A stretch of DNA of 64,000 nt, from NCBI GenBank assembly GCA_029261035.1, contig JAJDCD010000023.1:38501-102500 (forward strand). The letters are read 5' to 3'. A program made the translations under genes and the position numbers. The DNA comes from Candidatus Omnitrophota bacterium (lineage in GTDB: Bacteria > Omnitrophota > Omnitrophia > Omnitrophales > JACROU01). The notes below the pieces were generated by a model. It did not search any database. It saw nothing but the letters and a program-made list of their open reading frames with translations, and was not told the DNA's origin. How positions within the stretch are numbered: position 1 is the stretch's first letter; each line of letters starts with the position of its first letter. Below, one piece after another: positions 6,001 through 64,000 of this stretch.

Positions 6001-8568
6001 ATGGTTTTTCCTGCCCCGAATGGAGGGAAAGTAGGTTTTCAAAAAACATTAGGTATGGGAAAAGTAGAAGTAATTACTTTAGAGATAACAAGAGAGTCAG
6101 AAGAGTTGGTTTTGCTATTTAAATATGAGGGAAAAAATAAGAATGGAATGGCTAAACTTTATTGGACAGGTCAGGAGTATGTAACAGGGCAGCAAAGACA
6201 GATGGAATTTGTGCGAACCAGTTACGAAAAGCTTGAAAGAGGGGATGAAGTAAGAATTCAAATAGAAGAGCATGAGTTTTTAATTAATAAAAGACATGGG
6301 TTTTTACAGGGAAGTTTTCCTACTCCTGATGGAAAAGAGATAGGAGAAATGTTGTTTCCATCTATGGGAGAAAATGTGGAGTATTTAGATTTTTTTCTAA
6401 TAAAAGAAGAAAGTACGATTTTACTTGAATTCCACTCACGTCAAAAAGGAAAAAAAGAAACGATTATTTCTAGACTTTATTGGAATGGAACAGAGTTTGA
6501 AAGTGATAAAGATATTGAGGTTGGAAAAATCAAAGAGGGGTTTGAATTTCTCTCAAGGGGAATACAGCAAAGGTTTAATGTTGGTCCCTTAAATGAATTG
6601 ATTTCTAAAGGATATGGGAAGCTTCAAGCTGATTTTCCCACCCCTGATGGCAATAAAGTAGGTAGGGTGAAGCCTATGAGCTTAGGACCGAATTTTAAAG
6701 AAATTAGTTTAGAAATATTATTAGAAGAAGGGCAAATAGTTTTGTTTTTTACTTATACAGGCGAAGGAGAAAAAGAGCAAAGGCAAGGAAAAATGTATTG
6801 GGTCCACGATAAGTATTTAACTGAAAAGGAGATGCAAAAACATCGATTAGCTGAAGCGGTTAAAGCGGTTTATAACGGAAGTTTAGATCAATATGAAGTT
6901 GAGGATGTAGTCCTTTATGTGAATAAATCAGTGGGACGACTTAACAGAAGCTTCCCAACTCCCGAAGATGGGGTCGTTGGTAAAATGAAAACAATCGGCA
7001 TAGGAAAGCCGAATGCAGAAGTGAAATTTACAGTTAAAAGAGATGTAAAAACTCAAAAGTTACAACTAGTCTTCAAGTACAGGAAAGAAGGAGAGGTGGG
7101 CTTTAGAGAGGGTCCTGTAATCTTAACTTGGAATGGAACAGAATATGAAACGCCCAAAGAGATAGAGTTGCGTTTAATTAGAGAGGGTTTCCAAACGATT
7201 CAGAATGGAAATCTGAAATCTGTAAGAGTAGGAGAGCTCAACGAATTAGTCTCAAAAGAATATGGAAAACTACAGGGAGATTTTCCTACTCCTGACGGAA
7301 ATAAGATTAAAAGAATAAAATCCTTACGGATGGGCCCTAAACATAGCTATATTGCTTTAGAAATTACCAAAGAAGAAGGTGGGATAGTTTTAATTTTTGA
7401 TTACATCTTGCATGGGACAGCGGAAATAAAAAAAGGGAAGCTTTATTGGATTGATGGCACTTATTTAACTGAAAAAGAGTTTCAAAAGCATAGATTAATT
7501 AAAGCGATTGATGACGTTAATAACGGAGCTCTTTCTTTTGCTGAAATAACAAAACTGGATTATTTTTTAAATTTTAATTATGGGGTTTTGAACGAGACAT
7601 TCCCAACTCCGATAGGAACGAAAATAGGAAAACAACAATCACTTGGAATAGGGGGTCTTCTGGAATCAGTGAAACTAATTGTAGAAAAGGAAATAAGGAC
7701 TCAAAGATTGTTGCTAAAGTTTATTTATAAACGGAAGGGAGAAGCTGATTATCATCCTGAACCCGTCATTTTGTTTTGGAATAAAAAAACAAACAAGTAT
7801 GAAAAATATGTTCGCGAAGTTCAACAAGATGTTTATGAATTTGATCCCAATGAGGAGTTTGAGGGAATGAGTTTGGGAACTCGGTTAGAACGTTACCCCA
7901 AACCAATTCAGGAGGCTTTAAGGCTTGTTAACTTTTTAGATCGAGAAAATATAAATTTAGATTTTTTAGGGCAATATGTGAAACAAATTAGAACGACTGT
8001 AGCGGATCCGTCTGTTTATCAAATTATGGATGTGGTTACGTTTAAAGATCGGATTCGAGATGAAGAGTCTTTGTTAAAGATGGTTCGTATGATTGAGGAT
8101 GGCGGAAAAATTGAAGTGGCTTATAGTGAAGAGGAGCGAGAAGAAGTTCGAGGTTTCTTGAAAAAAGGTGGCTTGCTTCATGGATCATTTAAACATTATT
8201 TCAGAGATGTTTTTGTCCCATACTCAGAATTAGGAAAATCGAATCTGTCTAATTTGATCAAGGTTGTGTTGGTTGATGAGAAGAATATGGGAAGATTGAA
8301 TCAGCTAGAAGAAGACTTTTTTAAGGTGGGTTATGAGAGTCGGTGGTTGGATTATATTCCTGGAATGACAAGCATGCTTTCCAATATCAGCATTGAGGCG
8401 GCTCGAATGAAACGAGAAGGAGTGCCAGATCAATTGGCCCAATATGTTCAAAGTTTTTATGAGACGGGAACAAGCTTCTCTCTTCAGGGAGGAGTCTTGT
8501 TTTTGGATGTGGTTGAAATGTTGAAGACGAGTATTGTAAGGGATCGAATGATTGCGAGGGCGGCGTAG
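34..8568 (+). CDS. Giant secreted tandem-repeat protein (2,844 aa); N-terminal signal peptide, ~400-aa N-domain shared with the 25701..30785 protein, 19 x ~140-aa repeats, unique ~250-aa C-terminal domain
   Basis: Uninterrupted 8.5-kb ORF. N-terminus MTMTQIKKPISIILALCFLFTLVPAESVYA is signal-peptide-like. The motifs FPTPDG (and variants FPSPDG/FPAPNG/FPTPEG) and YWNG recur 19 times at ~140-aa spacing. A terminator-like palindrome follows the stop codon. Confidence 0.85.
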   Translation: MTMTQIKKPISIILALCFLFTLVPAESVYAKHPPIYLSSVPAVPEEWASVKRFSPSKASMGRIYLLEDAHGYIEAQERVLDLLSFLEEKTQVELVGVEGSSEDFNLLLFRSFPNLEKKKSWVRNKVREGELSGADGAAILSNQPMKYFGIEDEQLYQKNLNRYFDVQQQKPNKQIEAFEEKLDKQLSSKLSTTLLEVLNLEERLLHQDQAPYEWMKQLCSYQEILQAPKKLSHIFSLIKRTENDENFHEPLPKLEPEIFLEIKDYFTELKQKLIRSEDEANLLKRRDQFLRLKQLRDLKLTRQEWENLNKDFDELREFFEIQRSYYQTAIKRERSFVKSALNQMESTKQKETILHVGGFHTQGLKEAFLNKNYEVVQITPKWKKERESTYQERMNLIASSKSSLKEPSLVGANLLRGRVEGDVLQDWLSHNNAVEWGVQLIFSAYRLRQHKEKKLFDLLDRLTNHLDSTTPRHEGVASAKNGGSVLKGTEKLMTNGYELTASLSEDEKVVGASLGVKFSEKKILIGRIRTGFRQIEEGRVERVEIGDVSLIVQKKTGRSNHSFPTPDGDRVRKSVNFIAYENLDVIELTIVKGVEGQITLEFSHQKKGEEPKVSKVLWNGKEYERVLNNKEKEKQALIKKIRKAYQQIKSGAAEVGVGDIEPLVNLKFGWLYRTFPTPDGGALKDKKPGFNGRNIKSMDLKLIAAENGEIIFELSYVTKLGETEKTIMYWKENSLLSEKDYHLNKIMNGFKDLKAGNERVLVGGIDFFVRKKQGVLSHLFPSPDGEPLGEGTSIRSGPDIKTLTLSLLKDKANQIFLELHYTKENDEEGVSTLVWHNGKYVLPIKLLDQKFRQGFSDIEAGGSKFDIGEVSPFFNKDYGVSRHTFPTPKGTVKRNSLVRLEKNLDRVELKLLKVDDGSLVLEFEYELKGGAKGSKKVFWNGSKYEADVEKAVRKVKEAYKKVYAGEQKVVIGDASLLVSKERAHLYRVFPMPDGNPRRGSRNIGMQLNVQEIALTVHRGENGHPTLEFLYKKDEEEKILKIYWNGTLFETEKERLINKIRAGFEQVKTQGQEVSIGDVSLLVSKTSGGLQKTFPTPDGGQIDKPKRFGISEDLELIELTIEKDAQSQNILLRFDARKVGETRWSKPVVLVWDGTKFTTDRTKNEVNKELVVQKIKNAFLELQKEKKSIDIGNVTQLVGSKVGYLYNIFPTPDGNKVGKPTTVGLGVNIESISLKIEKDEELVLIFTVKGKNKETKAVRVYWNGKNYEKEYSRFLRKVREGFRLISKSGTTVVELGDVSRIVNTQGGTVYKTFPTPDGATIGKNFSLGTGGKVQGIALTLRKEIKTGRILLEFNYTKIKTKNVLRTQTLYWNPKIKTYLPYVKETQQEVYEFNLEDEFDGASLGDQFDQKKFVIERIQKAYKQIADGKQKVDVGDVSALIDLKKGLFIPRFPAPDGSKKHGAQAVGIGHHVKRVLLTLLKENETLVFKFTYLKEGSSQYQETKLYWNGTNFLLTPKWTRVKIYNAFDAIKPGETISIGDVSSVTNKERGCLLKTFPLPNGGRLGKNQTILSQKNNDVISLKVIKETEELILEFSYSSKNDNKVRRTRIYWNGSAYELEQDWKIRRIKEAYKKLKEGEVKDIGDVSSVINIERGLFQSAFPTPDGRRIKKVYTAAIGADSKQVWMRVRKENGDLTLELDYVKEKEKGTQILYWNGKKFETDFERKIRNIQEGFQRVLEDKTSVFSVLNIDFLVNQKYGYFLRRFPTPNGRQIGNAKLPGFGLNVRNIQLDVIKEDSEMVLSFNYDKEGKDTKSTLKLYWDGHKYLSEEEKKGENNSKEVLIRKIRKGYEVLQKDEKQSIEIGDISLLVSMQRGKFRSFFPTPEGGKLKTMASLYTGVRLESLTLNLKREGEDIVLELSFKRQGDTSLKNIQLYWNGTEFEQFKGKRSKMNEKQDLLKRIADGLKKVRKQEEDTVDIGDVSSVMNMKFGMIAMVFPAPNGGKVGFQKTLGMGKVEVITLEITRESEELVLLFKYEGKNKNGMAKLYWTGQEYVTGQQRQMEFVRTSYEKLERGDEVRIQIEEHEFLINKRHGFLQGSFPTPDGKEIGEMLFPSMGENVEYLDFFLIKEESTILLEFHSRQKGKKETIISRLYWNGTEFESDKDIEVGKIKEGFEFLSRGIQQRFNVGPLNELISKGYGKLQADFPTPDGNKVGRVKPMSLGPNFKEISLEILLEEGQIVLFFTYTGEGEKEQRQGKMYWVHDKYLTEKEMQKHRLAEAVKAVYNGSLDQYEVEDVVLYVNKSVGRLNRSFPTPEDGVVGKMKTIGIGKPNAEVKFTVKRDVKTQKLQLVFKYRKEGEVGFREGPVILTWNGTEYETPKEIELRLIREGFQTIQNGNLKSVRVGELNELVSKEYGKLQGDFPTPDGNKIKRIKSLRMGPKHSYIALEITKEEGGIVLIFDYILHGTAEIKKGKLYWIDGTYLTEKEFQKHRLIKAIDDVNNGALSFAEITKLDYFLNFNYGVLNETFPTPIGTKIGKQQSLGIGGLLESVKLIVEKEIRTQRLLLKFIYKRKGEADYHPEPVILFWNKKTNKYEKYVREVQQDVYEFDPNEEFEGMSLGTRLERYPKPIQEALRLVNFLDRENINLDFLGQYVKQIRTTVADPSVYQIMDVVTFKDRIRDEESLLKMVRMIEDGGKIEVAYSEEEREEVRGFLKKGGLLHGSFKHYFRDVFVPYSELGKSNLSNLIKVVLVDEKNMGRLNQLEEDFFKVGYESRWLDYIPGMTSMLSNISIEAARMKREGVPDQLAQYVQSFYETGTSFSLQGGVLFLDVVEMLKTSIVRDRMIARAA
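1590..7800 (+). repeat. Array of 19 tandem ~140-aa protein-coding repeats (consensus landmarks IGDVS..LV...FPTPDG...L.L...LEF.Y.K......LYWNG..YE)
   Basis: Read directly from the translation. A higher-order duplication is visible: the block ending TQQEVYEFNLEDEFDGASLG (~nt 4180-4250) recurs as VQQDVYEFDPNEEFEGMSLG (~nt 7820-7880). Repeats 16-17 and 18-19 are near-duplicates of each other. Confidence 0.8.
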
Positions 8569-8749: not shown

Positions 8750-8769
8750 GACAGTCGGACCTTTGTCTA

Positions 8770-8827
8770 GGGGACACGCACTTTTGTCACAATTGCTCTC
8801 GCAATGGTTACAAAAGTTTATGTCCCC
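8770..8827. repeat. Family C imperfect-palindrome repeat (~58 bp), copy 1
   Basis: ggggacacgcacttttgtcacaattg...caatggttacaaaagtttatgtcccc. Near-identical copies lie at 35863..35919 (reverse), 45500..45559 and 60992..61048. Confidence 0.7.
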
Positions 8828-8847
8828 GGCTTCCTTTTTGTTTTTCT

Positions 8848-14163: not shown

Positions 14164-14259
14164 GGAATTATATTTCCCCGGCGCTCAGACAGCACAAAAG
14201 TGACTGTCACCTGGGGTGACCGTCACTTTTGTGAACTCGCGGCGGGGAAATATAATTCC
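14164..14259. mobile_element. MITE-like palindromic element, family B copy 1 (conserved core CCGGCGCTCAGACAGCACAAAA...TTTTGTGAACTCGCGGCGG with 16-bp perfect inverted flanks)
   Basis: Flanks ggaattatatttcccc / ggggaaatataattcc are exact reverse complements. The core is shared with 35270..35353 and 44890..44970. The element sits inside the nuoD-nuoE spacer. Confidence 0.7.
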
Positions 14260-14338
14260 TCCTCCTAGAGAACCAAACGTCTCGTTTTTTATTGGTTTAG
14301 GGCGAGGTGCTTCGCGCAATATGTTTTGCTAATAGCTA

Positions 14339-14410
14339 GTGACTGTCACTTTTGCTTAGTTGAAAATAGTGGAAGAGATTGGCGGTGACAGTCACTGAAG
14401 TGACAGTCAC
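14339..14410 (+). repeat. Family A palindrome array (GTGACTGTCAC ... GTGACAGTCAC tgaa GTGACAGTCAC) immediately upstream of nuoE
   Basis: Three copies of the 11-bp palindrome. The same tripartite unit recurs at 16245..16313 upstream of nuoG. The array ends 27 nt before the nuoE ATG. Confidence 0.75.
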
Positions 14411-14437
14411 CTAAAAAGCTATAGACAAAGGAATATA

Positions 14438-16244: not shown

Positions 16245-16313
16245 GTGACTGTCACTATTAGGGCATAGAAAAAATTAGAGAAAGACGGTGACAGTCACTA
16301 AAGTGACAGTCAC
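16245..16313 (+). repeat. Family A palindrome array upstream of nuoG
   Basis: gtgactgtcac...ggtgacagtcac-taaa-gtgacagtcac-ctaaaagcc. Its architecture is collinear with 14339..14410. Confidence 0.75.
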
Positions 16314-16347
16314 CTAAAAGCCAATAGCTATAGGAGTTCGAAGAGTT

Positions 16348-25700: not shown

Positions 25701-28700
25701 ATGAGGTTTTTTTTAGTATTTCAGCAACAATTGAGAGTCCTAACCTATTTCCTTATTCTTACCTTCGGACTCGACTCTATTTCCCTGGCCCATGCTCAAT
25801 CTGTTACTGCATCCGTGAACGTTGCACCGAGCATTGGGTTGGGGGATTATTCTTCTTTTCCAGATAATCTTGGAAATATCATTCAAAAAAACGAAATATC
25901 TAAAAATGCCTTTAATCTGATTCACTTACAAGACGCCCACGCTAATCCTGAAGCCCAAAAAAAAATTGCGGAACTCATTCGATACTTTTCAGAAGAACAA
26001 GGGTATAACACTGTTTTTGTTGAAGGAGCGTATGGGAGATTGGATAAACGTTATATTGAATTTACAGATGATTTTTCATTAAATCAAAAAATTGCAGAGC
26101 GCCTCACTGCTTTGGGAGAGTTTACAGCGCCGGACGTTTATTTATCAAAAAATAAAAAAAGCACCCTTCAATTTTTAGGAATCGAAGACCCCCAACTTTA
26201 CAGAAAAAATGTAACGCATTTAAAAAAGATATACCAATCTAGAGAAGAAATTGAAAGTTGGATTGAAGCAAAAAAATTAATATTGGATCGAAAAAACTCT
26301 CGTCTAAAAAACAAAAACCTTTTCTATTTATTTAAAACATTTTTAGAACTTTCTGAAAAAACGAACAATTTCAGCCGTCATTTAGTTCAATTAAATACGA
26401 TCTCCAAAAGAGAGTTGGGAAGAGACCTTCAGGATGCGAAAGAACAAATAGAATATCCTAATATTGTTCGATTTTTAAGACTCTTTAAAGAGCAAAAGCT
26501 GGACCGCGAAAAAGCTCGTGTGGAGTGGGAGGAAATAGTAAAAACAATCTCGAAACAAAAGCAGTTCTTAAAGAGAGCACCTTCTTTTAAAGAACTCAAC
26601 GATCTAAATGTTAGGGTTCTTCTAGAAACCTTAGTGGAGGAGCAGGGGGTTGATTTTAAAGGGTTTCCCATTTTTTCAAAGTACGCAAAGGCTCTTATTT
26701 ATCAACAAGAAATGGATGGGGCGGCTTTGTTTGCAGAGCTTAACACGTGGCTCTTATCATTAATCAATCATTTTAGTTTGGAAGCTCAAAGCAAGAATCT
26801 TTTCAAAGAAATTCAGCTTTTTATTTTAATTAAAAAACTTTTGAAGCTCGAGTTAAAAAGAGAAGAGTGGGGTCTGATTAAGGATGAAGAAATCAAAGAT
26901 AAAGAAGTGCAAAACTTAATTGATGAAGCGCTTCTTTTTTATAAAGCTGCTGAGAAAAGAGAACAACCCTTTTTGGAACAAATTCAGAATCAGATCAAAA
27001 ATAAAAAAATAAAAAAAGCAATTTTACTTACGGGAGGATTTCATACTCCTGCGTTATTGAAACATGCAAATGAAGATGGCTGGAATTCTGTGGTTATTGC
27101 TCCTCAGCTTACTTCAGCAGTGGATCAAGATGATTATTTCAAAAATTTTATGGGAAGAGACCCTAAAGACATTGATGTCTCACAAGTAGTAACTCAGCCT
27201 TATTCTATTTCTCCAGAAACGGCAGTTGCGCTTGGTGTCGATCTTGCTAATAGACAGCAATTAGTAAACACTATCACTAGAGAGTTTGTGAAGGCGAGTA
27301 GCCTTGGGGAAAGGAAAGAAATCCTTCCGGGGTTTTTTGAAGAACGCCCTCTTTTTATTCCTAAAGACGGTCGTATTTTACGTTCCAATGAGAGACTTTT
27401 ACTTCAAGCAGGAGACCACTATTTTTATGTTGATGAAAAAAGAGTTGTTCAGGTGGATTCGACTGGGAAAAAAATAAAGCAAATTAAAATTGCAAATAAG
27501 CCTTTAAAACGATGGGAACTCTCTGAAGGAAAGAAGATGGTTTCTCGATCGCATTGGGCGTCTAATGAGAAAGAATTTATATGGTTGAAACACTATTTTC
27601 AATGGCAGAGATTGGCTAAAAAGGTTTATTTGAACGACCCGGTACTTATTGGACAAGGAGTTACATCTAAAGTTTACTCAATGAACGTTGCTATGCCTCA
27701 AGACGGTGTTGTTAGAACCTTAATAGGCACAGAATTTGTGAAGAAAAAAGACAAGACGATAGGCAGAAAAAGGGATTATGGTTTAGTGGGATATGAGGTT
27801 CAAAAAGGAGATTTCCAAGATGAGCCTGTTCCTGTGGGGGCAGTTAGAAAGTTGATTATAAAGACAAGCTCATTTAGCACAAAACGCTCTATTGCTTATC
27901 AAGAACTGATTCGCGATCGATTTGCGAGTACTTTTATTGCAAAGACTGCAGAGTTGCCTTCGAGGCACCCTGTAGCGCATGAGTTAGGATTAGAGCAGTT
28001 TGGCCGCGAACGCATCTTGCTTCAAGAGCCTTTGATTCCTTTAAGCCAAATTTTAAGAGAAGCTCGTGGCTATGAGAGACAATATTGGGCTAATCAATTT
28101 GTTCGGAGAGTGGAGGATTTTTGGAAGAGAGGCTACGTAGACTTAGATGCCAGGACAGATAATTGGGGCGTTAACAGCGAGGGTAAGCTTGTGTTTCATG
28201 ACTTTGATTTCGTTATGAGCTTATCGGAGATGGATAAGGGAATTAAGGGTAAAAGAGAAGACAAGTTAACCGTGTTGAGTCGTAAAATTCAGTTTTTTGC
28301 TAATTTTATTATTAATAATGTGTCATTTTTATATTCTTTAGATCCTGAGTTGGCTAAGCACTTTTATGAGCGTGTTGTTCATATTTCTTTTGAGTTAGAA
28401 AATAAGCAGAAGCTTTATTTGTTTAATGATATTTTGTCTAACGCGGCCGGGACATCTAAGCAATTAAAAAACTGGGAACAGCATTGGAAACGTATTGAGG
28501 TATTTGCTAAGCAGCTGATTCAAGCACATGAAGAACAAGCTTCTAAAGAAAAGCGAAAAGAAATAGTGAAAGATGTTTTCAATTTTTTAAGAGCTTCAGT
28601 GAAGAAAAGGCAAGCATTGATGACTCAGGTTTTACGTTTAGTAGCTCCGGCTTCACAAAGCGAACTTAAAGGAGATCAAATTAGAAGGCAAAAAGGGCGC

Positions 28701-30785
28701 ATCATTAAAAAATGGGCAGAGAAATATTCAGAGCCCTTCGCTTCGAGAGATCATGATTTTGAAAAATTTATAGAGCTAACAACAAAGTTAGTTACAGAAG
28801 GCTTTAGTGGCTTTGTGGATGGGGATCGAGCAGCAATTAGAGACATTATTGACAGTCGTCCTGTGCAATATGAAGGTGTTAGAGAGGTTGTTGTTGGTGA
28901 GATTGTGAGAATAATGAATGGCATCAACTCTTCTACATTAAATGCATTTTCCAGAAAACAAATAAATAATTTTTTCAGTTTTTTGGTTGCTAGAGATTTT
29001 TTCAAAAGACATTTTACTGCAGGAGAATCATTCGATGGCGTTCAAGAAATATATATAGGTTCTAAAGCGCCTCATTTTCAATTTCAGATAGCATCCAACC
29101 AATTGCAACCCTACCACTTTGTCGTTTTGCGTGTCCCTTTTGGAGATAGAGGAAAACATCGAGTGGTGATTTTTGACATGAGCGTTTTGAATGGCGAAAA
29201 AAGCCAAACTCAATTTAGAGGTATTTCTGAACAGGCTTATTCTAGCTTGTTATGGCAACCCTTCCGAGTAGATGGACGCGTTGTGGAAATGAGTTTGAAT
29301 ATAGATTCGTCTCAACAGCAGACGATGGAATTGCCGGAGGATGAAATTGGAGGAACTCGGCTACCTTATTTCTCTCAGACCATGATTGGAAGACTCGTTG
29401 ATTGGATGGGGGATATACAGGCTTTTGAAGCTCAGTTTGCAGACACTCAAGTTGTTCCACATGCTCCTCGAGAGGTTCCTGTTTTTACAAAACCAAGGCA
29501 TTCCAGATATAGACCCAGACATCATAGAATGGGGTCTCGGTCTATTCGAGCTAGAAAGAGAAGAAATATACAATTAGATCGGAATGATATAGAAACTAAT
29601 GTTAGACCAGGAAACTCTGCGAACTCGAGAACGTATGTTGATGCCACTCAAGCACCTAAAACGCGAGCAAAGTCAGAGGTTGTGAAAAAAAGACGTCGTT
29701 TAGGGTTGGGAAGACGGCCAGTAGAATTGCCGCCGTTGTCACCCAGAACTTCTTTTTCACCACCGATTCCAACGTCTGTGCCTAATCCGTTAAAACGATT
29801 TAAACCTATGTCGTTACCGCAAGGAGGTCTAACGTCATTTAATCGCCCTCCAGCTAGACAAAACCCAACTCCTCAGGGAGAAGGGCCGAACGTTGCGGAT
29901 CTTAGGAATCAGCATAAACGTATGTTTGGAAAAAGGCTTTCTATTTGGGATCATAGGATGCCTCCTCAGCAAGAGAAAAGACGCGGATTGAGGGGAAATA
30001 GTTTAGGCTCTATTGTTTCTGTGGCTAATCTTGTTGCAGATAAAATTGTTGCTCCTCAAGACTTAGAAAATGAAGTCATTGTATCAGCTGTTTTGAGACA
30101 GGAAGTATCTTTGGAACAACTCTTTAAACTTAGAGAGCTCTTTGATCAGGTGGGAGGAGATGGTTTTTATAAGAAATTGTTTGGCGCCAACTCCAACTTA
30201 AGTGTTGTTCTGATGCAATCTTCTCAAGTGACGGATGCGTTGGCCGCGGGGATAGATTGGGCTTTGGTGAATCAACCGAATTTAATTCTTCGAATTATTA
30301 ATGACGGAACGCAAAATGAGCAGATTGAACAATTGAAGCGCAAGGTGAAAGATTTAAATGTAAATCATAAAGCAGAGAGATTTAAAATCGTGATGTCTGA
30401 TTTGAGCGTTGTTGATACAATTAATTATATTCTCCGAGACAAAGGGAATCTCTATAAAGTGGCTCATACTTTAGATTCCGGTTTGGCAAGAATAGATGTA
30501 ACCAAGCGAACTGTTGTTTTGGCTAAGGAGCAAACCTTAGAAGATATTGATAAAGGGCTTTCCTCTAAAGTTATATTCATTCCTTCTGAAGTTGAAGGCT
30601 CAGCTCTTTATCAATTTGGAATTTCTACGGCTTTAGCAGCAAATGAGGGACGATTAACAGCAGACCTAAAAGAACATCTACGAATCTCCAAATCTGGACA
30701 TTTTGTTTTCCAGGATTTTTCTCGAATCCTTCATGAGCTGATGACAGCACACCAGGCTTTAAAAGCTATTCTACAAGCAGCCTAG
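25701..30785 (+). CDS. Giant secreted multidomain protein (1,694 aa): signal peptide, N-domain paralogous to the 34..8568 protein, kinase-like domain, basic/Pro-rich low-complexity tract, C-terminal domain
   Basis: Signal-peptide-like N-terminus (…LILTFGLDSISLAHAQS). LIHLQDAHANPEAQ / VFVEG / GGFHTPALL align with LLEDAHGYIEAQ / VGVEG / GGFHTQGL in the first giant protein. See findings for the kinase-like motifs. Confidence 0.85.
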   Translation: MRFFLVFQQQLRVLTYFLILTFGLDSISLAHAQSVTASVNVAPSIGLGDYSSFPDNLGNIIQKNEISKNAFNLIHLQDAHANPEAQKKIAELIRYFSEEQGYNTVFVEGAYGRLDKRYIEFTDDFSLNQKIAERLTALGEFTAPDVYLSKNKKSTLQFLGIEDPQLYRKNVTHLKKIYQSREEIESWIEAKKLILDRKNSRLKNKNLFYLFKTFLELSEKTNNFSRHLVQLNTISKRELGRDLQDAKEQIEYPNIVRFLRLFKEQKLDREKARVEWEEIVKTISKQKQFLKRAPSFKELNDLNVRVLLETLVEEQGVDFKGFPIFSKYAKALIYQQEMDGAALFAELNTWLLSLINHFSLEAQSKNLFKEIQLFILIKKLLKLELKREEWGLIKDEEIKDKEVQNLIDEALLFYKAAEKREQPFLEQIQNQIKNKKIKKAILLTGGFHTPALLKHANEDGWNSVVIAPQLTSAVDQDDYFKNFMGRDPKDIDVSQVVTQPYSISPETAVALGVDLANRQQLVNTITREFVKASSLGERKEILPGFFEERPLFIPKDGRILRSNERLLLQAGDHYFYVDEKRVVQVDSTGKKIKQIKIANKPLKRWELSEGKKMVSRSHWASNEKEFIWLKHYFQWQRLAKKVYLNDPVLIGQGVTSKVYSMNVAMPQDGVVRTLIGTEFVKKKDKTIGRKRDYGLVGYEVQKGDFQDEPVPVGAVRKLIIKTSSFSTKRSIAYQELIRDRFASTFIAKTAELPSRHPVAHELGLEQFGRERILLQEPLIPLSQILREARGYERQYWANQFVRRVEDFWKRGYVDLDARTDNWGVNSEGKLVFHDFDFVMSLSEMDKGIKGKREDKLTVLSRKIQFFANFIINNVSFLYSLDPELAKHFYERVVHISFELENKQKLYLFNDILSNAAGTSKQLKNWEQHWKRIEVFAKQLIQAHEEQASKEKRKEIVKDVFNFLRASVKKRQALMTQVLRLVAPASQSELKGDQIRRQKGRIIKKWAEKYSEPFASRDHDFEKFIELTTKLVTEGFSGFVDGDRAAIRDIIDSRPVQYEGVREVVVGEIVRIMNGINSSTLNAFSRKQINNFFSFLVARDFFKRHFTAGESFDGVQEIYIGSKAPHFQFQIASNQLQPYHFVVLRVPFGDRGKHRVVIFDMSVLNGEKSQTQFRGISEQAYSSLLWQPFRVDGRVVEMSLNIDSSQQQTMELPEDEIGGTRLPYFSQTMIGRLVDWMGDIQAFEAQFADTQVVPHAPREVPVFTKPRHSRYRPRHHRMGSRSIRARKRRNIQLDRNDIETNVRPGNSANSRTYVDATQAPKTRAKSEVVKKRRRLGLGRRPVELPPLSPRTSFSPPIPTSVPNPLKRFKPMSLPQGGLTSFNRPPARQNPTPQGEGPNVADLRNQHKRMFGKRLSIWDHRMPPQQEKRRGLRGNSLGSIVSVANLVADKIVAPQDLENEVIVSAVLRQEVSLEQLFKLRELFDQVGGDGFYKKLFGANSNLSVVLMQSSQVTDALAAGIDWALVNQPNLILRIINDGTQNEQIEQLKRKVKDLNVNHKAERFKIVMSDLSVVDTINYILRDKGNLYKVAHTLDSGLARIDVTKRTVVLAKEQTLEDIDKGLSSKVIFIPSEVEGSALYQFGISTALAANEGRLTADLKEHLRISKSGHFVFQDFSRILHELMTAHQALKAILQAA
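27600..28330 (+). other. Atypical protein-kinase-like domain inside the 25701..30785 protein
   Basis: Glycine-rich loop IGQGVTSKVYS, downstream VKKK lysines, catalytic-loop-like VDLDARTDNWGV (D-x4-N spacing as in HRDLKPEN), and HDFDF in the DFG position 14 residues later. Confidence 0.5.
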
Positions 30786-33209: not shown

Positions 33210-33863
33210 ATGGCAAATCCAAATCTTTATATAAAACAGATGGAAATGGGTCCTATGCAGAATTTTGTTTATTTTGTAGGGGATAAGAAGACAAGAGAAG
33301 TGGCAGTCGTGGACACCGCTTGGGACGTCCCTGAGATATTAAAGGCGGCCGAAAAAGAGGAAGTTACGATTACGCATGCTTTGGTTAGCCACTATCACTT
33401 TGATCATACCAATGGTCTTCCAGATTTGTTGAAAGAATTAGATGTTCCTGTTTATATTAATAAAGCGGAAGAGCAGTGGATGAAAGGATTAGCAGCAGAA
33501 AATACAAAAGCTGTAAAATCAGGAGATAAGATTAAATTAGGAGAGATTGAGATTGAGTTTTTGCATACTCCTGGACACACTCCGGGTTCTCAATGTTTCT
33601 TAGTGGATGGAAATTTAATTTCGGGGGATACCTTATTTATTGATGCTTGTGGAAGAACAGACTTGCCTGGAGGGAATCCAGAAGATTTGTATCATAGTTT
33701 AACGACGAAGTTGATGAAGCTGGACGACAGCACTATTTTATTTCCAGGGCACAATTACTCAGAGCTACAAACAGTGACTATGGGAGAACAGAAAGAGACA
33801 AATCCTTTTCTGAACATTCCCACCTTAGATGATTTTTTAAAAAAGTTTGGATATAAAGAATAG
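33210..33863 (+). CDS. Metallo-beta-lactamase-fold hydrolase (glyoxalase II-like)
   Basis: HYHFDHTNG (HxHxDH) metal-binding motif; 217 aa. Confidence 0.8.
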   Translation: MANPNLYIKQMEMGPMQNFVYFVGDKKTREVAVVDTAWDVPEILKAAEKEEVTITHALVSHYHFDHTNGLPDLLKELDVPVYINKAEEQWMKGLAAENTKAVKSGDKIKLGEIEIEFLHTPGHTPGSQCFLVDGNLISGDTLFIDACGRTDLPGGNPEDLYHSLTTKLMKLDDSTILFPGHNYSELQTVTMGEQKETNPFLNIPTLDDFLKKFGYKE

Positions 33864-33907
33864 CGGGTAGCGCGTAGCGTAGAGCGTATAGTTTCTGTTG
33901 TCTTTTT

Positions 33908-33946
33908 CCTTCTCCCTCCGACGGAGGGAGAAGGTTAGGATGAGGG
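33908..33946. repeat. Family D element (CT-rich hairpin + GTTAGGATGAGG tail), nested within a larger ~120-bp palindrome (33866..33990)
   Basis: ccttctccctcc-gac-ggagggagaagg then ttaggatgaggg. Flanked by inverted gcgtagcgtagagcgtatag / ctatacgct..ctacgctatacgc. Confidence 0.65.
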
Positions 33947-34004
33947 TGGTGGGCCCTATACGCTAAACGCTCTACGCTATACGCTAGTAGACAAAGGATA
34001 AAAC

Positions 34005-35249: not shown

Positions 35250-35269
35250 GAAGTTGGGTTTTGTTGGGC

Positions 35270-35353
35270 GACCTGGAAAGGTTCCCGGCGCTCAGACAGC
35301 ACAAAAATTGTGATGCGATTTTTGTGAACTCGCGGCGGGAACCTTTCCAGGTC
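35270..35353. mobile_element. MITE-like palindromic element, family B copy 2
   Basis: gacctggaaaggttcccg / cgggaacctttccaggtc perfect inverted flanks around the conserved core cggcgctcagacagcacaaaaat...cgatttttgtgaactcgcggcgg. Confidence 0.7.
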
Positions 35354-35388
35354 GCTTAAGTTATAACTTTTTTTTGGTATTGGGGGTT

Positions 35389-35748: not shown

Positions 35749-35862
35749 AGTAAAACACCTCTTGCTTTTATAAGTCTAGCATATGATGCTGGGATGTGCA
35801 TATTTCTCTATCTCTATATCAGTTATTAAGTTGCAGACATTACTTCACATTTTTAGGGAGTC

Positions 35863-35919
35863 GGGGACATGGGCTTTTGTAACCATTGCTAAGTAATTGT
35901 GGCAAAAGTGCGTGTCCCC
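35863..35919. repeat. Family C repeat, copy 2 (reverse orientation)
   Basis: ggggacatgggcttttgtaaccattgctaagtaattgtggcaaaagtgcgtgtcccc. Confidence 0.7.
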
Positions 35920-36016
35920 TATACAAAGGGTGGGCTGTATTCCTTTTAAAACCATTAGCAGCAATGACATTTATCCTATTTACTAAATTGACTAATAAGA
36001 TATAATCTTTCACCTT

Positions 36017-40689: not shown

Positions 40690-40737
40690 AGGGTATTCCT
40701 TATCCTTCTTTAGAGGAGGGAAGGAATAAAATTTTAT

Positions 40738-44838: not shown

Positions 44839-44889
44839 TATTTGAGAATTATTGTAACATAGAGGGGATAAGGGCGATAGAGGAGCGTA

Positions 44890-44970
44890 GAAAAACAGTT
44901 TCTCCGGCGCTCAGACAGCACAAAAATAACCCGCGATTTTTGTGAACTCGCGGCGGAGAAACTGTTTTTC
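44890..44970. mobile_element. MITE-like palindromic element, family B copy 3
   Basis: gaaaaacagtttctccg / cggagaaactgtttttc perfect inverted flanks around the conserved core ggcgctcagacagcacaaaaat...cgatttttgtgaactcgcggcgg. Confidence 0.7.
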
Positions 44971-45066
44971 TACTTAGGGGCTATCGCTGGGGTGGTGGGG
45001 GTGTGAGCAAAGAGTCTTAACGTCGAGTAAGACTCTTTGCAAGAGATCCTTTGTAGTTTCTCTTAA

Positions 45067-45428: not shown

Positions 45429-45499
45429 AGAACAATAGAAGATGAAAGGATGTTCATTTACTAGATGTATTTTAATTAGTATAGCCTGTCCTCTGCCTA

Positions 45500-45559
45500 G
45501 GGGACACGCACTTTTGCCACAATTACTTATTCGTAATGGTTACAAAAGTCCATGTCCCC
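45500..45559. repeat. Family C repeat, copy 3
   Basis: ggggacacgcacttttgccacaattacttattcgtaatggttacaaaagtccatgtcccc. The ORF-track entry 45442..45636 is an artefact of this repeat. Confidence 0.7.
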
Positions 45560-45661
45560 ATCTTCCTTTTTTTTACTTCTGGAAAAGGGCTTGCTTTTTA
45601 GGGGTAATTTTAGTAGTTTTATTCTTTTGTTTATGAGTTTTAGAGCTCGTTACATTATAGG

Positions 45662-52909: not shown

Positions 52910-52998
52910 TCCCTTCTCCTCTTTGAGGAGAGGGTTAGGGTGAGGTGTGGTTTAAATTACCCTCATCCCAACCTTCTCCCTCTAAAGAAGGAGAAGGA
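52910..52998. repeat. Two family D elements in inverted orientation (52910..52944 and 52958..52998)
   Basis: cccttctcctc-tttg-aggagagg+gttagggtgagg, then the reverse-complement-type copy ccctcatcccaacc+ttctccctctaaagaaggagaagg. Confidence 0.65.
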
Positions 52999-53013
52999 GT
53001 ACAGTTGGTAAAC

Positions 53014-53676
53014 ATGAATTCTAAATACTCCCTTATTATATTTGATCTCGACGGCACACTCATAGATTCCCGCCAAGATATTGTAGATTCTGCAAACCGA
53101 ATGTTAAATGAGTTAGACTTACCCCAAAAAGGAGAAGAAGTAATAGCATCCTTTGTCGGACACGGTTTGGGCAATTTACTTTTGGACTGCATTGGTCTTG
53201 AAAACAAACATCTTGCAGATAAGGCGCTTGCGTTCTTTAAAAAAGATTACGAAGAACATATGCTTGATAAGACATGTTTGTTTCCAGAAGTGGATGATGT
53301 GCTGCAAACCATTTTTAATGGTTATTTTGATTCTGAAGTGATTCAGACGGTCGTGACGAACAAACCTCTTTATTATTCCGAGAAAATTTTACAGTTACTT
53401 AAAGCACACCACTATTTCAAAGTTATTTTAGGCGGGGATATGCCTATGCCAAAGAAACCTGCCCCGGACTCTGTGCAGCACTTATCTGAAACGTTTAAAG
53501 TGCCTAAAGAACAAATTTTATTTGTGGGGGATAGTCTTGTGGATATGCAGACAGCGAATAACGCTGGAGTTGATAGCTGTGCTGTTACCTTTGGTTTTGG
53601 ATCCTTAGAATCATTGACCAATGAAAATCCCACATATGTCATCAATAATTTCTCAGAACTCCTTGAAATTATTTAA
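53014..53676 (+). CDS. HAD-superfamily hydrolase (phosphoglycolate phosphatase-like)
   Basis: IIFDLDGTLIDS motif I. The start was set at MNSKYS (AGGAG ribosome-binding site), because the longer ORF would read through the family D repeats. Confidence 0.75.
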   Translation: MNSKYSLIIFDLDGTLIDSRQDIVDSANRMLNELDLPQKGEEVIASFVGHGLGNLLLDCIGLENKHLADKALAFFKKDYEEHMLDKTCLFPEVDDVLQTIFNGYFDSEVIQTVVTNKPLYYSEKILQLLKAHHYFKVILGGDMPMPKKPAPDSVQHLSETFKVPKEQILFVGDSLVDMQTANNAGVDSCAVTFGFGSLESLTNENPTYVINNFSELLEII

Positions 53677-53816: not shown

Positions 53817-53858
53817 CTTTTCCCCTCTCCCCTTAGGGTAGAGGGTTAGGGGAAAAGA
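53817..53858. repeat. Family D variant
   Basis: cttttcccctctcccc-ttag-ggtagagggttaggggaaaag. Confidence 0.5.
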
Positions 53859-54149: not shown

Positions 54150-54200
54150 AATTTATAATACTAAGACTGTAGTAGAGGTCTGCCTAAATAGGCCACCCCC

Positions 54201-54252
54201 CAAAGTGCCAGGCCATTCGCGACAAAAATGTAGTGAATGGCCTGGCACTTTG
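54201..54252. repeat. Family F long hairpin (18-bp perfect stem) upstream of mutY
   Basis: caaagtgccaggccattc-[16-nt loop]-gaatggcctggcactttg. Confidence 0.65.
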
Positions 54253-54276
54253 GAAGAAAGTTGAATTTTTGTTGCT

Positions 54277-60991: not shown

Positions 60992-61048
60992 GGGGAAATG
61001 GATTTTTGATACTGTTGCAAAGCAACTGTGTCAAAAATGCGTGTCCCC
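60992..61048. repeat. Family C repeat, copy 4 (divergent inner region)
   Basis: ggggaaatggatttttgatactgttgc-aaa-gcaactgtgtcaaaaatgcgtgtcccc. Confidence 0.55.
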
Positions 61049-61194: not shown

Positions 61195-61235
61195 CCCTAA
61201 GGTGCCAGGCTCCTGAGGAGCCTGGCACCTTAGGG
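61195..61235. repeat. Family F long hairpin (19-bp perfect stem, 3-nt loop)
   Basis: ccctaaggtgccaggctcc-tga-ggagcctggcaccttaggg. Confidence 0.65.
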
Positions 61236-61264: not shown

Positions 61265-61298
61265 CCCTCTCCTTCATGAGGAGAGGGTTAGGGTGAGG
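61265..61298. repeat. Family D element
   Basis: ccctctcct-tcat-gaggagagg+gttagggtgagg, directly 3' of the 61316.. minus-strand gene. Confidence 0.65.
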
Positions 61299-61315
61299 AG
61301 TTCATTTTTAGAAAT

Positions 61316-64000
61316 TTAGGCCGCAACCTTAAGAGCTTGTTGAGCTTGGTGATATACGTAGAGATTTTGGATAAATTCTTGGGTCATCTGCCAAAGACCA
61401 TTTTGATTTTTAAGACCCAAAGAATGATAAAGCTGTTTTCGAGTTCTCTCATCTTGAACTAAAGCAATGCTTGTCATTAATTCCAATAGATCTGAAGTTC
61501 TAATACCGCTCTGTTCTACCAACTCTGAGTTCCAACGAACGCGTTCATAACTCTTCTTAATTTTAGGAAGATTCTGTCGGTCTGTTAAAGATTGAAAACT
61601 AATCCCGTTAGAAATTTCTTTCAATTCTTCCTTTACCTCGGAAACAAGAAAGTGTTGTTTGGCAATTACCTCAACCCCTTCTAAAGCCAACACTTGTTTT
61701 AACCCCTTCAGTTCTTCTGTTTCTTGCTGAAGTACAATAATTTTACTCCCTCGACGTCCTTTAAAAATAGAAACTAATTCTTCCTGTGCTACTTCATTTA
61801 ACATGGCTTCGCTTAAAATCCAAGCGATAGGCTCCAACTCTTTCTGTCCTAAACTCTGCGCTTTAACAATTACACCTTTAACACTATTAAGCGAAATAGC
61901 AAATTCAGATACTTGTCCAGGACCAACCTGTTTTATGTTAGATTGAATAAAGTCAAATAGAGTCTTATCCAATTGAACCTTATCTTGCTTTAACCATTGC
62001 TTTACAAGTCCTTCAGAAAAAAGATTTTTTGCGAATTCAGGAATTAACGAAATAACTTCACTATAAATTGCTTTTGTTTTTAACTTATACAGATTCTCTA
62101 TTGCAAGCTCTGATGTCTCTTCGTTAATAACGATAGCTGATGAAGATACGCTGCTAGGATCTAATCCCTTTGAAAATAATTTCATAACATACTGTCCAAC
62201 AGCATTTTGGAATACAGAAGCGTTTAGCCAAGTTTGAACATCTTCTAATGACAGGTAAGGACGCACATCTTCCGGCAATCTTTTTTCTATACCACGAAAT
62301 AACATCTCACTTATTGTTCCATGCTGTTCTTTTAATCGATACACTACCCCATGGTCTGAAGAAGACTGCATCATCGGCATTATCTTTTTAATTTCAGCCA
62401 TTTTGTCTCCAGAATACAATGCTGTTGGAACAAGATGACTCGCTTCTATTTCTACCCCTCTTTGCTTAAGCGCTTGAATAACCCAATTGTTTATAGGAGG
62501 CTTTGGAGTTGTTGTTTGTAAAATGCTAATAAAAACACTTCCACCAAAAGGACGCTTAACTCGAGCGATCAAATTCGACAAATCTTTCATCTCATCTATC
62601 GTTGAAAGTCCCCTCTCGGTATGTCCAATAAGAAAGTCTCTTCTTACCATAGACAAATAGTTTTCTGTAGACATTAAATCTACGGCCCATACATGATCAT
62701 ATGATTCATCTACAAGAATCTGACTGCTGACTTCAAATACACTTTTTTGTATCAAAGTAAAGCTACCTCCAGACTCTTGAATCTTATCTTTTACCTGTTG
62801 ATACAATGCATTTAATTGCGGCGCATAAACCGTTGAGGGTTCCACAACAGTCACCTGAGCACCCATCATTGCTGAAATTAATGAAAACACCGTATGTCCT
62901 GGCCCTATCTCCAACAACCGATCTCCAGGCTGAACGGAGACAGAATTAAAAATTTTCTCTACTTCTCTTTCAGACAAAAAGAACCCTGATTTGTACTTAA
63001 AACTTTCAACACCTGTTAAAACGCTCATTGCACTAGGAGCTGCTTTACTTGCTTTCTCAAAATCAAGGTTTTCTTTTAAATATTTAAAAACTTCTTTAAC
63101 ATCTCCTGGTTCGTTCCTGTCTAGTTTTTGCGACATTTCAGGAAAAGAAACACCTAAGCTAGCTGCTTTTACAGAACTAGCCTCTTCTACCAACCTCGAA
63201 AAAACATTATCGGTATTCAAAGAAATACTTCCTGGTAAAACTTTTGGTAAACCTGCATACGCATTCTTAATACTTATCACCTCAGAAAGCCAAGGCAAGT
63301 CCCTTTTAGCAACTACCCAATCGGCAAGACGAACAATTTTTTTTACAGACTCCAAGCTTCTCCCTTCTCGGGCTAGCTTTTCCGCAAATAGCAGCTCTGC
63401 TTGCGAGCCCAAACTTTGAGCATCAATACGATTAAAATGAAAACCACTTCCGTTATCCAACATATTGGTTCGCCAATCAATTTGACCACTTTCATCTAAC
63501 AAATTCCGATCTCCAAGCACCACTCTTACAGCAGACAAATGAGTTCCATGCCCAAATAGCACAACAACTTTTTCGTTGTCTTGATAAGTATCATTTATTT
63601 TTTCCATCAATTTCTTTGCTCGGTCTAAAACTTTTAAGAAACTCTCTCCCCTAGGAAATTGAATTCGCGCATTGGCAGCATAACGATACATGTATTCAAG
63701 CTCAAGTTCTTGAGAATCAAAGTTGGCAACTGATTTTTGATCTGCTGTACCAAAGCTCATTTCATTCAACAAGGGTTCTTCAACAACTTCCAGATTAGTT
63801 CCCGTCCGTTCTTGAAAATGCTGAATAAAAGCATCTGCAGTCTCCTTTGAACGTCCCAACTCGCTTGTCATAACAACAACCTGTTTCCCATCAAGTACTA
63901 ATTCTTCAAGTTGAGCATATAATGCTTCAGCTGCCAGCTTCGCCTGCAACTGCCCCTTTTCATTTAACTGGTTATCCGGCTCGTCTACATTCCCCTGGAA
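61316..64000 (-). CDS. Large multidomain protein (histidine phosphatase/PGAM-like N-domain + class I SAM methyltransferase + C-terminal region); N-terminus runs off the window
   Basis: …QAKLAAEALYA…VVLFGHGTHL is a histidine-phosphatase-like pattern. LLEIGPGHTVFSLISAMMGAQVTVVEPS is a methyltransferase motif I/II-like glycine-rich patch. The ORF is open to nt 64000. Confidence 0.7.
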   Translation of the reverse strand, partial: FQGNVDEPDNQLNEKGQLQAKLAAEALYAQLEELVLDGKQVVVMTSELGRSKETADAFIQHFQERTGTNLEVVEEPLLNEMSFGTADQKSVANFDSQELELEYMYRYAANARIQFPRGESFLKVLDRAKKLMEKINDTYQDNEKVVVLFGHGTHLSAVRVVLGDRNLLDESGQIDWRTNMLDNGSGFHFNRIDAQSLGSQAELLFAEKLAREGRSLESVKKIVRLADWVVAKRDLPWLSEVISIKNAYAGLPKVLPGSISLNTDNVFSRLVEEASSVKAASLGVSFPEMSQKLDRNEPGDVKEVFKYLKENLDFEKASKAAPSAMSVLTGVESFKYKSGFFLSEREVEKIFNSVSVQPGDRLLEIGPGHTVFSLISAMMGAQVTVVEPSTVYAPQLNALYQQVKDKIQESGGSFTLIQKSVFEVSSQILVDESYDHVWAVDLMSTENYLSMVRRDFLIGHTERGLSTIDEMKDLSNLIARVKRPFGGSVFISILQTTTPKPPINNWVIQALKQRGVEIEASHLVPTALYSGDKMAEIKKIMPMMQSSSDHGVVYRLKEQHGTISEMLFRGIEKRLPEDVRPYLSLEDVQTWLNASVFQNAVGQYVMKLFSKGLDPSSVSSSAIVINEETSELAIENLYKLKTKAIYSEVISLIPEFAKNLFSEGLVKQWLKQDKVQLDKTLFDFIQSNIKQVGPGQVSEFAISLNSVKGVIVKAQSLGQKELEPIAWILSEAMLNEVAQEELVSIFKGRRGSKIIVLQQETEELKGLKQVLALEGVEVIAKQHFLVSEVKEELKEISNGISFQSLTDRQNLPKIKKSYERVRWNSELVEQSGIRTSDLLELMTSIALVQDERTRKQLYHSLGLKNQNGLWQMTQEFIQNLYVYHQAQQALKVAA

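Follow-up and report, generated by a model that had tools for sequence, protein, structure and literature searches.

We conclude that the five short hairpin-bearing repeats in this DNA are probably dispersed intergenic DNA repeats of the BoxC/PIT/'triplex motif' (TM) class, which would be either DNA-level structures or selfish sequences. The window, by which we mean the whole 64-kb stretch that was analysed, has a GC content of 38.8% and belongs to an Omnitrophota host. The copies have a common anatomy, covary as mirrors, are enriched over chance, lie between genes, are present in a lineage-specific manner and are kin to E. coli BoxC. The initial annotation had listed five copies of a C/T-rich hairpin with a conserved 3′ tail, and had taken the changes in their stems as the covariation pattern of a structured RNA or of a substrate for a structure-recognising enzyme. 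Reading of the regions and a hairpin scan of the whole window recovered all five copies where they had been placed. They are listed here with a possible relic and with the two arms of a palindrome that surrounds copy 1.

33908-33949, plus strand: copy 1, intact triplex motif with a perfect 12-bp Y/R hairpin and loop GAC; Y-arm 33908-33919 CCTTCTCCCTCC, R-arm 33923-33934 GGAGGGAGAAGG, turn TTA 33935-33937, third strand 33938-33949 GGATGAGGGTGG.
52912-52947, plus strand: copy 2, CCTTCTCCTC ttt GAGGAGAGGG tta GGGTGAGGTG; 10-bp stem with one Watson-Crick mismatch.
52959-52997, minus strand: copy 3, CCTTCTCCTTC ttta GAGGGAGAAGG ttg GGATGAGGGT in the minus-strand reading.
53822-53858, plus strand: copy 4, decayed, CCCCTCTCCCC tta GGGTAGAGGG tta GGGGAAAAGA, with a stem mismatch.
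61265-61299, plus strand: copy 5, CCCTCTCCT tcatg AGGAGAGGG tta GGGTGAGGA(G); 9-11-bp stem.
40693-40727, minus strand: possible relic, imperfect Y/R hairpin TTCCTTCCCTCCTC taaa GAAGGATAAGGAA without a third strand.
33861-33891, no strand assigned: left arm of the outer palindrome that encloses copy 1, with TAGCGNN 7-mer repeats.
33956-33986, no strand assigned: right arm of the outer palindrome, 77-88% complementary to the left arm.

Each unit is 35-42 nt long and carries three blocks on one strand, in the order C/T arm, 3-6-nt loop, complementary G/A arm, 3-nt turn and G/T/A block. The second turn reads TTG in one copy and TTA in the other four, and the tails begin TTAGG... or TTGGG.... As had been proposed, the family is defined by structure and not by a fixed sequence, its arms staying complementary across copies, from the perfect 12-bp stem of copy 1 to the 9-11-bp stems of copies 2, 3 and 5, which have no more than one mismatch. 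Four of the five copies (1, 2, 3 and 5) are intact; copy 4 is degenerate, with a tail that decays after GGGG, and is recognisable by its alignment to copy 2 (68% identity). There are two subfamilies in the window, copies 1/3 and copies 2/5, the arms of which differ at three positions. Copy 3 belongs to the copy 1 subfamily (33924-33947 versus 52959-52982, 24 nt at 96% complementarity), and the description of it as the inverted partner of copy 2 was borne out: it is read on the minus strand and faces copy 2 tail-to-tail across an 11-nt spacer. The possible relic is 82% complementary to the copy 3 hairpin and is intergenic, with a cytochrome c biogenesis gene on either side; its membership of the family is uncertain. 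Folding with ViennaRNA, which covers the hairpin part only, gave −13.5 kcal/mol for the DNA hairpin of copy 1 (z = −4.5 versus shuffles) and z = −5.1 for that of copy 5, whereas the copy 4 hairpin was no better than shuffled sequence (z = 0.02).

The 3′ tail, which had been described as conserved, turned out to vary in step with the stem as a mirror of the purine arm. Following the TTA/TTG turn, the tail reads as the purine arm reversed, with G opposite G, and A or T opposite A. The copy 1 arm GGAGGGAGAAGG becomes GGAAGAGGGAGG on reversal and the tail is GGATGAGGGTGG, a match of 12/12; in copies 2 and 5 the reversed arm is GGGAGAGGAG and the tails are GGGTGAGGTG and GGGTGAGGAG (10/10 each, the value for copy 5 being that of the extended arm and 9/9 otherwise). 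Copy 3 matches at 10/11 and the degenerate copy 4 at only 6/10. Because the arms in the window lack mirror symmetry, the mirror register can be told apart from a direct repeat, which would match at 10/12 in copy 1, where it requires an odd loop, and at 7/10, 7/11 and 7/9 in copies 2, 3 and 5. All three arm changes between the subfamilies are tracked by the third strand. Third-strand position 9 is T versus A between copies 2 and 5, both of which are permitted opposite A. The mirror rule is exactly that of an intramolecular purine-motif DNA triplex, reverse-Hoogsteen and antiparallel, with the triplets G.G:C, A.A:T and T.A:T. Part of the covariation among copies may stem from the expansion of a small number of subfamilies and not from independent selection.

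A MAFFT alignment of the five copies left the 5′ arms out of register, and a covariance model cannot encode G-G and A-A mirror 'pairs'. The covariance model that had been suggested was replaced by an ITxF-style triplex scan and by a hairpin-only scan with permutation controls. Our Python re-implementation of the ITxF class II rule (stems of 6-15 nt, loops of 1-6 nt and at most one mismatched triplet) called copy 1 with a 12-nt stem and no mismatch, copies 2 and 3 with 10-nt stems and one mismatch, and copy 5 with a 9-nt stem and no mismatch; it made no call at copy 4. Copies 1, 2, 3 and 5 thus follow the stem, loop, mismatch and triplet rules of ITxF class II, a class that is defined by foldability and not homology, such that membership says little on common origin. 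Motifs of this class are strongly over-represented in general versus scrambled genomes, and G/C-rich examples have been described in, for example, Microcystis, Nostoc/Anabaena, Neisseria and Pseudomonas (PMC4666352). In the window, our scan gave 4 G-rich class II motifs whose stems reached 9 nt or more, and in 100 dinucleotide shuffles it gave none. The tail motif GGTTAGGGTGAGG occurred 17 times in the window with up to three mismatches, against 8.7 expected, a count that was reached by no shuffle; with up to two mismatches it was found in copies 1, 2, 3 and 5 and at one non-family site at 14295. A chance origin is rejected by the excess of GGTTAGGGTGAGG and of triplex motifs over shuffles. 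The scan of the window also returned one A/T-rich 8-nt match that looks like chance.

The window carries housekeeping genes, among them a nuo operon, a LeuCD-like aconitase, cytochrome c biogenesis genes, a FabA/KS cluster, tandem ThyX, MutY and GltB. All five copies are intergenic and lie in short gaps between co-directional genes. The statement that they lie just 3′ of genes is true as far as it goes but is not specific, as each copy is also 5′ of the next gene and copies 3 and 5 are antisense. Four copies are on the plus strand and one is on the minus strand; relative to transcription, copies 1, 2 and 4 are sense and copies 3 and 5 antisense. The stable hairpins of copies 1 and 2 are found 10-45 nt past stop codons, copy 2 starting 10 nt past the stop of the DUF1571 gene, and copy 3 ends 17 nt upstream of the ATG of a HAD hydrolase gene at 53014. 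Copy 5 lies 17 nt past the stop of the minus-strand gene 61316-63949 and is antisense to that gene. A reading of the copies as coding sequence was rejected on their positions between Pfam-supported genes.

We also recovered the larger palindrome in which copy 1 had been reported to be nested, and the fold of 33860-33995, which takes in the palindrome and copy 1, has z = −6.1. The TAGCGNN motif was found only around copy 1 within the window, and the palindrome is a context of copy 1, outside the repeat family. Several other palindromic repeat families are present in the same genome.

The best named homologues of two window proteins come from "Candidatus Omnitrophica" at no more than 65% identity, which points to an Omnitrophota host, and the window proteins tested are all singletons at 90% identity. 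At copy 1, two short SRA (Logan) contigs match the window letter for letter; one of them stops exactly at the 3′ edge of the element, a kind of break that repeats typically cause in assemblies. The two nearest relatives keep the gene order FabA-KS-KS-hydrolase-DUF1571-HAD, and neither of their 20-kb syntenic loci contains a class II triplex motif. The DUF1571-HAD gap, which holds copies 2 and 3 in the window, is 2 nt in one relative and 95 nt with a different palindrome in the other. Since the syntenic loci lack the element, the elements at this locus are lineage-specific gains or there have been losses elsewhere.

A full-text search of the literature with TTAGGGTGAGG led to Holder et al. 2015 (PMC4666352), who described 23 'TMECO' elements in E. 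coli K-12, for example CCCTCTCCCTTGAGGGAGAGGGTTAGGGTGAGGGT, with the consensus CCCTCNCCC N3-6 GGGNGAGGG N3 GGGNGAGGG and a 'type A' second loop of TTA (PMC4666352). These elements had earlier been named BoxC (Bergler 1992) and PIT, for potential intrastrand triplex (Hoyne et al. 2000; Hoyne & Maher 2002). A search with reverse-complement sequence retrieved only the sequence upstream of E. coli fepB, where a tail-to-tail arrangement like that of copies 2 and 3 is seen. TMECO oligonucleotides form a triplex by circular dichroism (CD) and NMR, with 18 imino signals and a Tm of 70-82 °C, and the elements arrest DNA polymerase in vitro (PMC4666352). In the genome they are always intergenic, lack a strand bias and include five inverted pairs, and their loci show more strain-to-strain variability than control sites (PMC4666352).

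Common to the BoxC/PIT/TMECO elements of E. coli and other Enterobacteria and to the window copies are the succession of Y-arm, R-arm, 3-nt turn and G-rich third strand, the core GGAGAGGG-TTA-GGGTGAGG with its 'type A' TTA turn, and a strictly intergenic distribution on both strands with inverted pairs and no linked mobility genes. Of 5426 complete E. coli genomes, 5409 carry sites that are 84-89% identical to copy 5 over 92-97% of the length of the copy. Such sites have a median of 14 per genome, are chromosomal in 69,092 cases and plasmid-borne in 36 (of 69,128), and are annotated in none. The window copies differ from TMECO in that their arms, of 9-12 triplets, are longer, contain more A and lack mirror symmetry, in that they lack the four GGG tracts and in that their host is a low-GC Omnitrophota bacterium whereas TMECO hosts are proteobacterial; a regular expression for the strict TMECO consensus had no match on either strand of the window. 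The asymmetric arms show directly that the third block mirrors the purine arm in antiparallel orientation instead of repeating it, a distinction that the symmetric E. coli consensus cannot make. The copies are best described as G/C-rich class II triplex motifs whose core is homologous to that of BoxC/TMECO. The window element is a variant-armed member of these known repeats, for which we found no earlier description in this lineage. This removes a false lead, as what had looked like a new RNA is a BoxC/PIT/triplex-motif repeat of a kind described since 1992-2015, and it extends the host range of the family to a low-GC Omnitrophota genome.

The core also occurs far beyond these hosts. The 21-mer GAGGAGAGGGTTAGGGTGAGG, shared by copies 2 and 5, was found exactly in at least 120 contig stretches of species-representative genomes, a number of loci that gives breadth and not counts. 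Hosts among the matches listed include Nitrospirota, Alpha-, Gamma- and Deltaproteobacteria, Bdellovibrionales, several Patescibacteria (CPR) lineages, Chloroflexota, Planctomycetota, Verrucomicrobiota, Bacteroidota, Chlorobiota, Ignavibacteria, Cyanobacteria, Melainabacteria, Armatimonadota, Eisenbacteria, Stahlbacteria, Binatia, one Omnitrophica genome and one archaeal metagenome-assembled genome (MAG) of Methanomethylophilaceae. We counted 190 G-rich class II motifs in about 0.86 Mb around the genome matches listed and 198 in about 1.1 Mb around the viral-contig matches listed. The anchor sequence is absent from 172 of these 388 motifs; the purine arms of these 172 come in 49 distinct forms in the genome set and 30 in the viral set, and their second loops vary.

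In 102 anchored copies, drawn from about 100 species, the ninth base of the Y-arm and that of the third strand varied together: a T in the former was accompanied by T or A in the latter in 56 of 62 cases, and a C by G in 36 of 40 (Fisher p = 7e-17). The surveyed copies are phylogenetically non-independent, so that p-values overstate the evidence, though the effect clearly points one way. Where the anchor was missing, 19% of 439 perfect Y/R hairpins had tails that obeyed the rule at 89% or more of positions, compared with 4.9% (maximum 7.3%) in the permuted-tail control. These surveys show that the triplex rule is general beyond the window. Metagenome contigs were seen to break at the element.

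An exact 19-mer was present in at least 120 IMG/VR contigs. These contigs probably represent host-derived sequence; some form of horizontal vector is possible. Curated phage genomes yielded about 6 near-full matches in 50,697 records, and plasmid matches were mostly to megaplasmids, chromids and mislabelled chromosomes. A phage or plasmid vector was rejected as a simple explanation on these phage numbers and on the chromosome-like character of most plasmid matches.

On a DNA-level account of these repeats, a replication fork, a transcription bubble or negative supercoiling would leave the G-rich strand single-stranded for a short time. Its C/T and G/A arms could then pair as a hairpin, and the third block would fold back onto the purine arm in antiparallel orientation, forming reverse-Hoogsteen triplets (G.G:C, A.A:T and T.A:T), to give an intramolecular purine-motif triplex. 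By analogy, the window copies may fold and act like their E. coli homologues. Any action of the element would thus be that of DNA, with no RNA gene involved, and the likeliest consequence would be polymerase pausing with local instability in the form of indels or rearrangements. It might persist as a non-autonomous selfish or near-neutral repeat, or the fold might be mildly useful. In vivo DMS footprinting of the E. coli elements saw no stable triplex, the duplex form competing with it (PMC4666352), and in vivo folding is for this reason unproven even for the E. coli members.

The mirror rule is kept, and the identical 21-nt core recurs, in genomes that cover well over a dozen phyla and include at least one archaeal MAG. 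This could mean that there is selection in vivo for the triplex or for its reading by a universal host factor, a speculation that we regard as distinctly unlikely. If it were true, the repeat would be a pan-prokaryotic functional non-B-DNA signal, for instance a programmed replication or repair pause site, or would be spread by some ubiquitous host pathway and need no transposase. The window copies, G4-free and with asymmetric arms, would then be natural separation-of-function variants for triplex versus quadruplex.

The copies might instead be a REP- or MITE-like mobile element, with hairpin and tail recognised by a structure-specific enzyme that would copy them from one intergenic site to another (such as a Y1 transposase of the RAYT/IS200-IS605 type, or a nuclease or recombinase of the host) and with the triplex-compatible symmetry being either what the enzyme reads or incidental. 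We consider this unlikely. A dispersed, multi-copy and strictly intergenic family with lineage-specific presence at syntenic loci is what such an element would produce, as are the frequent inverted pairs (51 of 61 close pairs at the surveyed loci), the contigs that break at the element as expected of a high-copy repeat, and a genome with several other palindromic repeat families. Set against this, there was no candidate enzyme for the structure-recognising activity that had been suggested: no transposase or integrase, and no Y1 (RAYT) transposase gene, was found among about 50 open reading frames (ORFs) of the 64-kb window, and no transposase or integrase has been found near E. coli TMECO sites (PMC4666352). 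Shared flanks, terminal repeats and visible target duplications common to the copies were likewise not seen in the four copy regions that were read. Recognition by a protein would not predict the G-G and A-(A or T) mirror rule, and the element's near-absence from curated phages (6 near-full matches in 50,697 records) and its rarity on E. coli plasmids (36 of 69,128 sites) also speak against mobility of this kind. REP/BIME sequences with RAYT resemble the window repeat in being short, high-copy, intergenic, palindromic and often arranged in inverted pairs; they have in addition a conserved GTAG-type 5′ tetranucleotide and a cognate RAYT gene, neither of which was found in the window, and they lack a triplex-compatible third block. 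It is possible that the repeats of the triplex-motif class are also mobilised by an enzyme in the manner of REP/MITE elements, and this would be compatible with the structural reading.

A structured RNA, as originally suggested, would take the form of a 3′-UTR hairpin terminator, a REP-like stabiliser of mRNA 3′ ends or a small RNA. The short distance of the copy 1 and 2 hairpins from the preceding stop codons, the sense orientation of copies 1, 2 and 4 and the covarying stem arms would all suit such a role, which we nonetheless judge to be highly unlikely. The hairpins continue as TTAGG... with no T-run, and terminator and promoter scans called nothing at any copy. Orientation is mixed, copies 3 and 5 being antisense to the adjoining genes, and the G-G, A-A and T-A mirror rule is meaningless as RNA base pairing. 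Rfam 15 gave no match in the whole window at the gathering score and, at E ≤ 5, only sub-threshold matches to hairpins of eukaryotic miRNA precursors. The E. coli PIT elements have neither terminator nor promoter activity (PMC4666352), and RNA strands are reported not to take part in purine-motif triplexes (Semerad & Maher 1994, cited in PMC4666352).

A related arrangement is known from intergenic repeats of Methanomicrobiaceae that combine a potential G-quadruplex sequence (PQS) with a C-rich track, and that likewise consist of G-rich blocks and a complementary C-rich block (PMC8044849). They form a hairpin and an antiparallel G-rich triplex in vitro, with switching between triplex and G-quadruplex (G4), and differ from the window copies in that the G-rich blocks come first and the C-rich track is 3′, in their longer G-runs and real G4 potential, and in their archaeal hosts (PMC8044849). 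A switch between G4, hairpin and duplex (HPGQ), proposed for the E. coli motif by Kaplan et al. 2016, in which the G-rich half would compete as a G4 with the hairpin and regulate neighbouring genes, has in its favour these archaeal repeats, the four GGG tracts of the E. coli consensus and the G4-like CD spectra of its oligonucleotides (PMC5100583), and is extremely unlikely for the window copies, which have only two or three runs of three or more G in arm and tail. The pattern (G3+N1-7)x4 had no match on either strand of the whole 64-kb window; weak two-tetrad G4s in the copies are possible. Retention of the triplex rule together with loss of canonical G4 potential favours a triplex or mirror constraint over a G4 switch.

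For practical purposes, repeats of this type break metagenome assemblies and can be absorbed into predicted ORFs, as in the HAD hydrolase, whose database protein begins within copy 3.

The open reading frame call for the HAD hydrolase has swallowed a triplex repeat. The database protein (P0001, 243 aa; window 52945-53676) starts at GTG 52945, within the pair formed by copies 2 and 3 of the triplex motif, and its reading frame runs across copy 3, giving MWFKLPSSQPSPSKEGEGVQLVN... in the predicted product. Since homologues are 214-219 aa long, compared with 243 aa for P0001, the true start is likely to be ATG 53014.

The motif also coincides with the ends of assembled sequences. L002, a contig of the same organism from the Logan SRR15505518 metagenome, stops precisely at the 3′ boundary of copy 1, with its position 1 corresponding to about 33953 in the window, and many of the triplex-motif matches listed in other genomes lie at contig ends. 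Together, these observations suggest that the triplex motif is a frequent assembly breakpoint. We found the exact 19-mer GGAGAGGGTTAGGGTGAGG in at least 120 IMG/VR contigs (L129-L248), with full class II motifs in 113 of these loci. It was almost absent from curated phage genomes. The IMG/VR matches probably stem from host DNA flanking proviruses, or from contigs that were misclassified.

In loci from Nitrospirota / Thermodesulfovibrionia (L003, L060, L066, L098 and L099), the first loop of the motif is long and carries its own palindrome, in the layout CCCCTCTCCCC TTGTGGCCATGGCTCGTA GAGGAGAGGG TTA GGGTGAGGGG, which suggests that the triplex motif exists in composite forms specific to particular lineages.

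Several unrelated types of palindromic repeat crowd the intergenic regions of this genome. The following were located in the window and, where indicated, in L123, from the nearest relative:

8751-8835, 35855-35952, 45467-45567 and 60992-61048, intergenic: palindromic repeat GGGGACAYG...TTTTGT...GTGTCCCC
about 10660-10715 of L123, intergenic region downstream of the HAD gene: similar palindromic element
14173-14250, 35268-35355 and 44887-44973: third palindromic family, CCGGCGCTCAGACAGCACAAAAGTGAC / GTCACTTTTGTGAACTCGCGGCGG
14374-14432 and 16277-16335, between nuo genes: small hairpin family GGTGACAGTCACTRAAGTGACAGTCACC
54200-54253 and 61196-61235: small hairpin family GTGCCAGGC

The GGGGACAYG...GTGTCCCC repeats, about 57-100 nt long in the window, form a family separate from the triplex motifs. 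The nearest relative has a similar element between genes, downstream of HAD, so the two genomes seem to have this family in common, which is not the case for the triplex motifs. Members of the CCGGCGCTCAGACAGCACAAAAGTGAC / GTCACTTTTGTGAACTCGCGGCGG family have arms of 24 nt that are 96% complementary, and one copy lies within the nuo gene cluster. The second GTGCCAGGC hairpin precedes triplex-motif copy 5 by 30 nt.

The window also contains two giant open reading frames:

34-8568: 2844-aa protein
25701-30785: 1694-aa protein

Internal repeats are numerous in the 2844-aa protein, with TTGGAATGG... units spaced at roughly 310 or 650 nt. At a threshold of 1e-5, the 1694-aa protein matched nothing in Pfam.
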